A DNA stretch of 64,000 nt from Ascidiella aspersa (lineage: Eukaryota): positions 25,172,001 through 25,236,000 of the forward strand of contig OZ004615.1 of assembly GCA_963924565.1 (NCBI GenBank), read 5' to 3'. Below, in pieces: positions 6,201 to 60,299 of this stretch. The position numbers and the translations under genes were made by a program. Position 1 is the first letter of the stretch. Each line of letters begins with the position of its first letter. The notes under the pieces are model-generated. The model did no database searches and had not been told where the DNA came from. It was given only the letters and a program-made list of their open reading frames with translations.

Positions 6201-6495
6201 ATAAGGACCTGGTTGCGGAGTTATGATGCCGCGATAGCAGCCGACAGCGCCATTAGGCCCGCTGCCACGTCTTGTATTTGCTTGTTTTTGGCGTCGCTTG
6301 TTTTAGCTGCTCATGGCGGTTTTGCTTTTTGCTGCCTTGGTTTTAATTTGAGTTGACGTTTGTTCGAGAACGATGAGAAAATCTATTAATTTTAACAAAC
6401 TTGATAAAATAAATAAAGATACATTCGAAACATAGAGTTAGCTCCACCAGGTAACATATCAATAAATATAAATCTCTCTTCTGGTGTAAACGAAG

Positions 6496-6547
6496 TATAA
6501 ACCGACGTTTCGGCAGCAGATACCAGCTGACCTCATCAGGGTTAATA
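6496..6547 (-). ncRNA. Minimal type-I hammerhead ribozyme (Penelope-like/retrozyme type)
   Basis: Minus strand UAUUAACC-CUGAUGA-GG(U)CAGC-UGGUAUCU-GCUGCC-GAA-ACGU-C^GGUUUAUA: full core, stem I, stem II, palindromic stem III, GUC site. Confidence 0.85.
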
Positions 6548-7347
6548 ATTAAAACGAGAGTGCGTTAGCCATCTTATACACTGAGAAGTAAAAAATTGAA
6601 AAAACGTAGATTAAAATTATTTATTTATTCGAAACGTTCAAAATGTTTTTCAAGTATGGGCTTTGAGATTCTTACTACAATAAGACTATCGCCAAAATTA
6701 AATATACTGTGTTTGTTTGGTGATTAATTTTGGCGTCGCCCATTTTAGCTGAACATGGCGTTTTTTCTTTGGCTTTGGTTTTAAATTAGGATTTTTGCTG
6801 AAACGTCAGGAAAATCTATTCATTTTCTGAACAAAACTGCCTCCAAAATGGAATAACTCCAAAAATTGCGTTTGCTTGTTTTACGATATTTGGAAGATAT
6901 TTGCGCAATAATTCTTAGGTTTTCCTAAAAGGTTGATTGACGTAATGCTGACGTTTTCAGTCGACTACGCCCTTTTATCCTAATCTATCGACAAAGTTTA
7001 AATCTTTACATTTAAAAAATTTGCTTTCCAGCGATGTGATCTTTTTGATGCAATCCGTGCAAATTAAACACGTCATCCTAAAAACTTAGATTGGCCGATT
7101 GCTTAAACGTCGGATATTGACGGAAGCAAACAACTTCTTTCTTCAAGGTTCCAAAATAAAACGATTGTAAATTCTTGAGCGACCGACGTCATATGTTTGT
7201 AACTAAAAAAAACTAAAAAAAAAGATTTTAAGATTATGCAACCTTAATCTTTTGATTACCAATAATTCTACATTTCCTACTCTTTATATAATTAAACAAC
7301 AATTTCGTAATAAAAAATTGCAAAATAAATCAACCAGCGACAACACT

Positions 7348-57700: not shown

Positions 57701-59556
57701 AACTAAACTGAAAAACTGCGTTGGCTTAGAACATTTAAAAATAATACTGCCGTTGTAATAACTTTAAACCCAACATGTGGGACTGCATTAGGCATCGTCT
57801 TTCTGCATTTTCAACAACAAATGTTACAGAGGGAAAATGTCGTATATAGGCGAACAGTAGGCCTAATAACTAACTAATAATTGATTAGATCGCGCGTTAG
57901 GGGGAAGCATGTTGACGGGATAATTTGGTTATGGCCAGATGAAACGTCACGTATTATTAATAACACCTTATGTGAAGCCACATGTGTGGATTTATTACTG
58001 TTGTTTACAAGTTAGGTTGAACTGACATAAGTGACTTGGGCAAGTTTCAGGGTGTTTCATTAAAAAAGGATCCAAGTTTCGCGCGTCGGTAACGGAAGTG
58101 CAGATAGTTTAGCAAACGATAAAAAGAAAGATTTGTCAGAGAAAAATGTGGTTTTGTAAAAAGTCGAAACTGGAGTTAAAATAATGAAAATCCCAAAAAG
58201 TGTGACGTCATGTTGTATGTGACGTCAAAAATGCATTGTATGGCGTCATCATTGGATCGTGGCGTTAAGCAATAAAATGAAGAAGTACAACAAATTACAA
58301 ACAAGCAGCTTAAAGTTGAAATATTCTACTTACCACATTGCATTATCAAGTTAAGTTGAAATTACCTGAGACGTAATCCTCGTTAAATTATAGTTAACAA
58401 CAAAAAAGCAAGCAAACTGTATTACATGAAAAATTGAAATAAATATCCCAATTTTGATGGCAAGCGAAACCATATCACTTTAATCCCTGTCATTTGACTC
58501 AATGTCCAAAACAAAATTTGTCCAGCATGAGTACCGGTATATTATATTATTTAGAAACTTTTATTTATTAACCAGTTAAACTAGAGTTTGATGTTTAGCT
58601 TCAAAAAGGGGGGCAACACAAGTGCTGGGATCCTATGCATGTAAGGCACCGTGGTTTCAACCAATACAAAATCAATGTGGATTTAGGCTACTTTTACTAG
58701 TTTTATTTTTTGCCTTCTCCCATTTACCCTATAGAAAAATGAATTTTAATTTACAGCCGGTTAGAAAGTACTGGTGTAAAAGATCATGGGTAAAACGAGG
58801 GATGTCCAATATTATCGGAAATGTTCGTCGGATGCAAAATTAAGCTAAATTTGGATTAAATTTACTAAACGACAAGTTCATAAAGCCCAGCATAAATTTT
58901 GATAAACGTTTCTTTTATCTTTTTTCGTTTAACAATAATTATCCTACGTTAAATAATGTCAATGCAAAATTTTACACCCGGCCAGCCATCTCCAATCTTT
59001 ACAACAGTCCTTAAAGTTATCTTGCCCTTTATAAACAATTTGGTCACCCCTGGACTGGTATAGGCTTAAGCAAAAGGGCAGTCGCAATAATGTGCATTCA
59101 CATGCGTAAATATTTGCCGGCAGAAATGAAATTGTGCTTCTATTCATTTCGCATGCACACCCAGGTGTATTTACTGCAGTAATTTGCACTAATATGCTAA
59201 CTTTGCAAAGCCGGTCGATGTTTACTTGAAGAGCGGTTAATGTTTTACCGAATATAGGCCCGTTGCTAAATAAAGCTTGATGAGAAAATCGTGTAATCAG
59301 CACTTGATTGAACTGCATTACACACATATGGAGCTCTGTAAAAGGTCATCAAAGTAATTGCTATCCCATAGAAGAGACTTAAAAACAACGAAATAAATGG
59401 CTCTTATTTTACAAACAGTATTTATTCATTTTGCCATTTTTACTTTGAATTTTACGTTTTTGTAACCATATTAGTAGCATAATCAAAGTATTCTTTCGAA
59501 TAACAAAATCTGCCTGAATCCGAATGGTGAAAACAAACGATTCTGGTTGCACATCA

Positions 59557-59746
59557 ATGATAAAGATTAAACTAAGTACAGAACTTAGTAAACCGAAAAT
59601 CAGTTTGTTTGTATGTAATAAAAGAACATTCATTCGAATTAAGATACTGATGATGCTGTATAGCGAAATATATTTATCTTTTCATTACATACAAACAAAC
59701 TGATTTTCGGTTTACTAAGTTCTGTACTTAGTTTAATATTTATCAT
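59557..59746. repeat. ~68-bp inverted repeat flanking a hammerhead
   Basis: 59557-59624 is the near-perfect reverse complement of 59677-59746. Confidence 0.9.
59641..59680 (+). ncRNA. Minimal type-I hammerhead ribozyme within a foldback element
   Basis: AAGAUA-CUGAUGA-U-GCU-GUAU-AGC-GAA-AUAUAU-U^UAUCUU; perfect 6-bp stem I, palindromic stem III. Confidence 0.75.
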
Positions 59747-60299
59747 ATTAGTAGCATCTTTAATTTTGGTGCAAGTTGTCTTTTGTATAAGGCTACTAAG
59801 TAGGCCTACAGGTTCAATTGATTAACAAGTAACCTACAACATGTTTTGTAGTTTTAAAGATTTTTAATAAAGAACCGCCATGCTTAAGTCGTGGATTATT
59901 GATATTTAAACTTGCAATTTTATCAACATTAAAACCCCTGGACAAAAGTTTTCTTAGGTTTTAAGAAAAATGTTAATACTAGAAATTATAGTTTTCTGTA
60001 GCTTACCCTCAGTCAAAATATAAAAAGTATGAGCGTTCTGTCTTACATAAGCAGTGATGCCTTTTATGAACTGACGACTTTATTACCTACAACTAGATAC
60101 GGTTGATTAGATTAAACACTTACAAGAAAAATGGTCACTTTAAAAATTTGGATTATGTAAAGTTTACCCCTAGACCTGATTGCATTCTAGCGCCTTCCCG
60201 CCAGAGATATTTTGCGTGGAATATCGCAGACTACGGAATTAACCAAAAAAAGTTGTTGTTTTTGGAGTATATATCGTCCTGTTTTGGCTTAGGATTTCA

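Follow-up and report, generated by a model that had tools for sequence, protein, structure and literature searches.

Penelope-like elements (PLEs) of the EN+ class, such as A. vaga Pen2a, carry a C-terminal GIY-YIG domain, form partial tandems and are accompanied by an inverted, 5'-truncated copy; they also have a tail at one end, a pLTR plus tail overlapping the 5' region of the open reading frame (ORF), and a target site duplication (TSD) (PMC3846280; PMC8557442). The tail at one end, known from both accounts, can be explained by the in vitro behavior of the Anolis Poseidon protein PAc, which uses two internal start sites of reverse transcription (RT) bounding the tail; the same report describes PLE protein as cutting and extending both DNA strands in vitro and as using uncut RNA (PMC11167929). 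The minimal hammerheads of metazoan PLEs contain an extra base between positions 9 and 10.1, a G10.1-C11.1 pair and a palindromic helix III (PMC4209133). In D. virilis Penelope, the 5' strand of helix I coincides with a 3' splice site, and helix I differs between spliced and unspliced RNA (PMC4209133). For intron retention in PLEs, the relevant part of PMC3846280 leaves undecided whether the template is antisense and self-primed or sense and unspliced.

In the present study, we analyzed a 64,000-nucleotide stretch of Ascidiella aspersa DNA (the window; all coordinates below refer to it), in which a hammerhead within a foldback had been annotated. The layout, tail, TSD and minimal hammerhead found here are already known features of PLEs. 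What appears to be new is the probable trans-splicing of a leader at the hammerhead edge, recorded in the genome as ORF-less stubs. We consider it very probable that the locus is a 263-bp Penelope-like insertion with head-to-head arms in a 14-bp TSD, the hammerhead-bearing arm likely being the reverse-transcribed 5' end of a trans-spliced, capped mRNA.

Structure of the insertion

Comparison of copies delimited the insertion to 59481-59743, within a perfect TSD whose left and right copies (59467-59480 and 59744-59757, plus strand) are the only places where this 14-mer was found; the first 3 nt of the right copy match the element too. The foldback of about 68 nt that had been annotated was recovered as two 67-nt arms of 97% identity (59557-59623 and 59680-59746; z = -13 for the fold), but the extent assigned to the element was too small: the left arm reaches 59481, which adds a 77-nt tail, and the TSD lies beyond it. 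Also overlooked were the 16 nt preceding the hammerhead, which correspond to a putative host leader that the parent does not have at this place.

The insertion is composed of (i) an inverted arm (59481-59623, minus strand), which aligns to parent locus L072, covers approximately u37-u179 of the unit (numbered from u1 = 59644) and ends at the long 3' end, with the tail as its outer part (~59481-59556); (ii) an arm-to-arm junction of 2-4 nt (59624-59627), in which templating was not evident from the sequence and alignments; (iii) the 16-nt leader SL-A (ATTCATTCGAATTAAG; 59628-59643, plus strand), a putative host spliced leader absent from the parent; and (iv) a sense arm (59644-59743, plus strand) comprising u1-u100 of the 5' UTR/pLTR, bounded by the splice acceptor and the short 3' end, with 93.5% identity to locus L065. 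As had been proposed, the insertion is fairly recent. The TSD copies are identical, the whole 143-nt inverted arm has an identical twin in locus L015, and the right arm departs from its nearest relatives at a small number of positions.

The distance from the insertion to the first coding exon of the aquaporin gene is approximately 5.7 kb, and that to the first likely kinase exon approximately 3 kb; nothing suggests a host role for the insertion. The annotated flanks (aquaporin and IPMK) were supported by a MIP/aquaporin exon on the minus strand at ~53 kb, with a Pfam match below the curated cut-off (E = 0.0017), and by a plus-strand exon beyond the window, which we take to be inositol-phosphate-kinase-like from a motif recognized by eye. 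The spliced 5' UTR also carries an upstream ORF of 17-18 codons (about u4-u60; 59650-59703), the start of which lies within the hammerhead, and a second ATG is present in the tail, 5' of the main ORF start.

The hammerhead motif

The minimal type I hammerhead was located exactly where it had been annotated, on the plus strand at 59641-59680. It consists of a 6-bp helix I (AAGAUA, 59641-59646, and UAUCUU, 59675-59680), the core CUGAUGA (59647-59653) followed by an extra U (59654), a helix II of 3-4 bp (GCU-GUAU-AGC, 59655-59664), GAA (59665-59667), the helix III palindrome AUAUAU (59668-59673) and U at H17 (59674), with the predicted cut at 59674/59675. Its features match those of minimal PLE hammerheads (PMC4209133), with the core, a base inserted after A9, the G10.1-C11.1 pair, a palindrome as helix III and a helix I. 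The last AAG of SL-A belongs to helix I, the strands of which covary across five Penelope families.

The description of this hammerhead as intact holds for the core sequence, but not beyond it. An Rfam scan did not detect a hammerhead at 59641-59680, and monomer folds of this region yielded no stable hammerhead (z ~0). Helix I was predicted to pair with a probability of 0.02-0.04 in read-through RNA including the foldback and of 0.19-0.25 in the leader-started arm alone. Since helix III of minimal PLE hammerheads requires a dimer (PMC4209133) and helix I is predicted to be unpaired in read-through RNA, cleavage at the window locus is doubtful.

A descriptor search of the window identified two hammerhead motifs, the one at 59641-59680 and another at 6.5 kb on the minus strand; in Markov-shuffled windows, the same descriptor gave one match in 3/30 cases, and a match as stringent as the 59641 motif in 1/30. 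Near 6.5 kb, no match to the family unit was obtained at E <= 1; at the DNA level, the two hammerheads are therefore unrelated, and their earlier assignment to separate families was borne out. The 6.5-kb motif (6490-6600, minus strand) has its core at 6539, an ACGU palindrome and no leader; a pyrimidine tract followed by CAG is located ~40 nt 5' of the core.

The parent family

The insertion belongs to a multicopy family: a DNA similarity search of the A. aspersa genome (309 Mb) gave at least 81 matches (40 of 972 candidates were scored), and the 30-nt core pattern had 120 exact matches. The interpretation of the locus as a Penelope-like insertion carrying an inverted, incomplete pLTR was strengthened by a parent family encoding both reverse transcriptase and GIY-YIG, with the latter located C-terminally (Pfam RVT_1, E = 1.2e-5, in L031; GIY-YIG, E = 5.8e-4, in L065; each match narrowly missed the curated cut-off). 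The parent family contains the linker CxxCxxC (CGHCGLC in L065). The window element is a member of the EN+ class and, judged by the linker criterion for the Neptune and Nematis clades (PMC8557442), likely belongs to one of these two clades.

The 3' unit recurs 239 nt after the stop codon of the parent ORF. In L072 and L145 the pLTR occurs in partial tandem, both before and after the ORF, and the unit plus tail run straight to the ORF start, ~10 nt past the tail. This tandem layout indicates that the unit is the 3' pLTR and also the 5' UTR of the next copy; acceptor, hammerhead and tail together make up the 5' UTR of the ORF that follows. In place of SL-A, the parent has TTTTTAG upstream of the hammerhead, with the AG 3 nt before the core. 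No unbroken full ORF was found among the copies of the window family, all of those seen being truncated or broken. Related families are abundant in the genome at 45-50% protein identity, and a protein search gave 82 relatives (35-58% identity), almost all unnamed and one from Phallusia.

Two other element types were considered and rejected. A MITE or foldback DNA transposon does not fit, as the two outer ends are unequal by 77 nt and different copies have different inner junctions, and neither does a non-LTR retrozyme with head-to-tail hammerhead tandems, as the copies are dispersed and either single or head-to-head.

Putative spliced leaders and their genes

Two leaders, SL-A and SL-B, were identified at the hammerheads. 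When followed by GT, SL-A had 2,301 genome matches and SL-B 354 (controls, 0 in both cases); a few of these matches are element copies that start with GT, and those listed are mostly tandem arrays, with a period of 429 bp for SL-A and 584 bp for SL-B. Both arrays contain the leader, GTAAG, a short hairpin and a U-rich tract (ATTTTT), which we take, from its pattern, to be an Sm-like site. SL-B is identical to the Ciona spliced leader (PMC1488885, Table 1). Gene structure and likeness to SL-B point to SL-A as a host spliced leader as well.

Loci L128 (G000:C7:14773000-14775500) and L129 (G000:C3:5407500-5410500) are two distinct arrays of SL-RNA-like genes; the Ciona-type leader resides in the 584-bp unit and the second, more numerous leader in the 429-bp unit. 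Several intron variants of the SL-B genes were observed (L118-L127).

Leaders joined at the hammerhead acceptor

A leader followed by CUGANGA within 6 nt was found at 228 junctions genome-wide (157 with SL-A and 71 with SL-B; controls, 0). In five families for which a parent hammerhead was found, a pyrimidine tract and YAG precede the core by 3-5 nt, and in 5/5 the leader joins exactly at the parent AG, lengthening helix I by 1 bp in 4/5. The spacers between leader and core (ATA, ATATA, AGA, GAA and ACAAA, the last seen once) are the bases that follow the parent AG; further spacers (AAA, ATAAA and rarer ones) were not matched to any parent found. At parent loci L137, L138 and L144, pattern search detected no hammerhead. 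Dispersed SL-A copies with a next base other than G numbered 247, and the first 30 included 16 with an exact core within 6 nt and four with near matches. Other repeats are headed by a leader with no core directly after it (L147, L155, L174, L114; L164, L165, L173; L110, L116; L112, L117), and could represent retroelements of other kinds or host RNAs that were retrocopied.

Within the window family, 100 arms reach the acceptor: 54 continue into unspliced parent sequence (ending TTTTTAG), 23 carry SL-A, 14 SL-B, and 9 were unclassed. For loci from L031 onward the corresponding figures are 53, 7, 8 and 5 (73 arms). Of the 37 leader arms, 17 stop at the short and 20 at the long 3' end, and none (0/37) runs past the tail into the ORF; post-tail sequence was found solely in the two unspliced tandems (L072, L145).

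The base preceding the leader (-1) is G in 44/95 copies versus a background of 15% (P = 3e-13), and in 30/58 copies from 60 loci retrieved specifically for this comparison, whereas the SL genes have T at this position. C is also raised overall (21/95), and is the base found in the window copy. An extra G from copying of the cap occurs in other retroelements, and the extra 5' G of the leader copies is, as expected, consistent with this process. The near-identical 5' junctions of leader insertions in L187/L188 and L230/L231 (25 kb and 82 kb apart, respectively) are likely local segmental duplications, which slightly inflate the -1 counts.

RNA reads were also inspected. In run X6 (~6% of the run sampled), 143 reads fell on the parent, and none of the loose ends listed carried a leader at the acceptor; the reads lie in both orientations and mostly continue into dissimilar flanks. 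One contig of run X3, from another study and under another organism label, carries G plus SL-B at the acceptor of the parent.

Arm ends, inverted pairs and target site duplications

Arms were analyzed at 110 distinct loci (113 less three duplicates) that came from the similarity and protein searches and from the first 100 of the 120 pattern matches; loci L001-L030 had been chosen by likeness to the window and are biased toward its layout. Most of the 177 arms end in one of two narrow intervals, u92-109 (78) or u165-177 (92), and only seven end elsewhere. One short and one long 3' end were combined in 55/59 head-to-head pairs; the remaining four comprise three with one degraded end outside these intervals and one long-long pair, 3.6 kb apart and without a TSD. 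TSDs of 13-16 bp border 28/59 pairs, and TSDs of at least 11 bp 31/59 (control, 2/150 at 10 bp or more).

The two arms of a pair tend to agree. Where both extend past the acceptor, they are of a single class in 13/13 pairs (10 unspliced, three SL-B), and a three-site haplotype is common to both in 29/42 pairs (5,000 shuffles: mean 12, maximum 23); most of the 13 mismatched pairs are older copies differing at a single site. Gene conversion between arms could add to this concordance. Head-to-head insertions of other PLE families with the same leader on both arms were observed in L162/L163, L159 and L198. A three-piece insertion was detected at L054:3844-4123, in which an inverted tail piece is followed by a tail end directly joined to GG, SL-B and the unit; this layout suggests a template jump from a capped 5' terminus to another tail start.

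Proposed mechanism

In the mechanism that we propose, the host would splice its own leader onto the acceptor of the parent, giving the mRNA of the element, and the reverse transcriptase of the element would start within the 5' UTR, at u100 or u179. On the spliced mRNA it would run off at the cap, often adding G, and leave ORF-less stubs such as the window copy; on an unspliced tandem precursor it would continue into the upstream copy, giving rise to insertions that contain the ORF. Each of the two nicked DNA strands would prime at its own start site on a single RNA, and the cDNAs would be joined head to head; this two-strand, one-RNA step is one that we infer from the sequences of the copies. 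The hammerhead would be mostly uncut in the templates. As the arm ends of the less biased set (2/21) show no pile-up at the cleavage site and helix I is predicted to be open in read-through RNA, the window copy is likely inert and the templates likely mostly uncut.

Because reverse transcription would start in the 5' UTR, splicing may act as a switch. With middling confidence, we propose that at least five PLE families keep an acceptor at the hammerhead edge so that the host leader completes helix I and the mRNA is formed; spliced RNA would be a source of protein and of dead-end stubs, and copying of the gene would require unspliced tandem RNA. If so, intron retention in Penelope elements would be explained without an antisense template, and the inverted ends by two rounds of copying of a single RNA, from two start sites. 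Moreover, an exon supplied by the host within a ribozyme helix means that splicing may tune cleavage.

Alternative explanations

A tentative alternative, which we regard as possible but rather unlikely, is that the acceptor ends a cis-spliced 5' UTR intron, and that leaders are added as a side product to read-through RNA from dispersed copies whose donor has been lost, rather than on the usual route to the mRNA of the element. The intron of D. virilis Penelope runs up to the 5' strand of helix I (PMC4209133) and is required for expression (PMC2377424), and trans-splicing is the default for unpaired acceptors (PMC1488885); the mixed orientation of the RNA reads and their unlike flanks also fit this alternative. 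However, inspection by eye showed no arm with upstream element sequence joined at the AG, and a leader is present on 37/100 arms. Expansion of a SINE-like non-autonomous family from one or a few chimeric masters would account for the fixed 5' end, the length of ~116-195 nt, the missing ORF and the hundreds of copies. This origin is nevertheless quite improbable: a single family bears two different leaders, at least five families are involved, always at the parent AG, the 5' flanks of the leader copies are unrelated, and G at -1 indicates a capped leader at each event.

The same base bears on the idea that the leader was acquired as DNA or cDNA, either through recombination with SL genes or because the template was switched to SL RNA at the shared AG. 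SL genes are present in ~2,600 copies and only 2 nt (AG) would need to be shared, yet the junction always coincides with the donor/acceptor point, neither the SL intron nor sequence upstream of the SL accompanies the leader, and -1 is G and not the T of the SL genes; a switch onto capped SL RNA accounts for the G but not for the precision, and we consider capture highly improbable. Finally, the inverted arm might be cDNA that ran off at the hammerhead cut of a template on which the ribozyme was active. The left arm in the window ends 2-5 nt short of the predicted cut, and 8/34 high-identity shortened arms end at u32-41; in loci from L031 onward, however, only 2/21 do so, with no excess over neighboring bins, and 100 arms read through the whole motif. 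Run-off at the cut is accordingly improbable, and arm ends were dropped as a record of cleavage, as the less biased set has no pile-up at the site. Trans-splicing of the leader before reverse transcription remains our preferred explanation.

Comparison with known systems

Leader-tagged copies with a cap-like G document, in the genome itself, the copying of spliced sense RNA and the absence of the ORF from the resulting copies, and the leader is a built-in tag by which spliced and unspliced templates can be counted across hundreds of insertions. In a search of the openly accessible literature, with most hits assessed at the level of the listing, we found no report of leader trans-splicing of PLE RNA or at hammerheads.

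The closest parallels outside PLEs are DNA copies of leaders. Those of dinoflagellate retrogenes likewise mark reverse-transcribed trans-spliced RNA, but of host genes. Six SL-bearing transposons have been described in S. mansoni; in the accessible part of that account they are unassigned and a possible misassembly, and a link to PLEs or hammerheads was not found there (PMC5832876). Non-LTR retrozymes consist of short units that do not code for protein, contain a type I hammerhead and are related to PLE pLTRs, but are described as head-to-tail tandems (10.64898/2026.07.22.740005), in contrast to the dispersed head-to-head or single copies with TSDs observed here.

Compared with the EN+ PLEs of PMC3846280 and PMC8557442, the window family has a longer tail (77 versus 30-40 nt), longer TSDs (13-16 versus 8-10 bp) and a host leader on a large share of its copies. 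The start sites of PAc are inside the ORF and no leader is involved, whereas those of the window family lie just before the ORF, and the rule of one short and one long end per inverted pair was not encountered in the accessible account of PAc (PMC11167929). Relative to the metazoan PLE hammerheads of PMC4209133, the distinctive feature is a helix I completed across the leader junction. The intron of D. virilis Penelope is spliced in cis and kept in transposed copies (PMC4209133; PMC2377424); the acceptor of the window family, in contrast, takes a leader in trans, and the spliced product is present in the genome as DNA.
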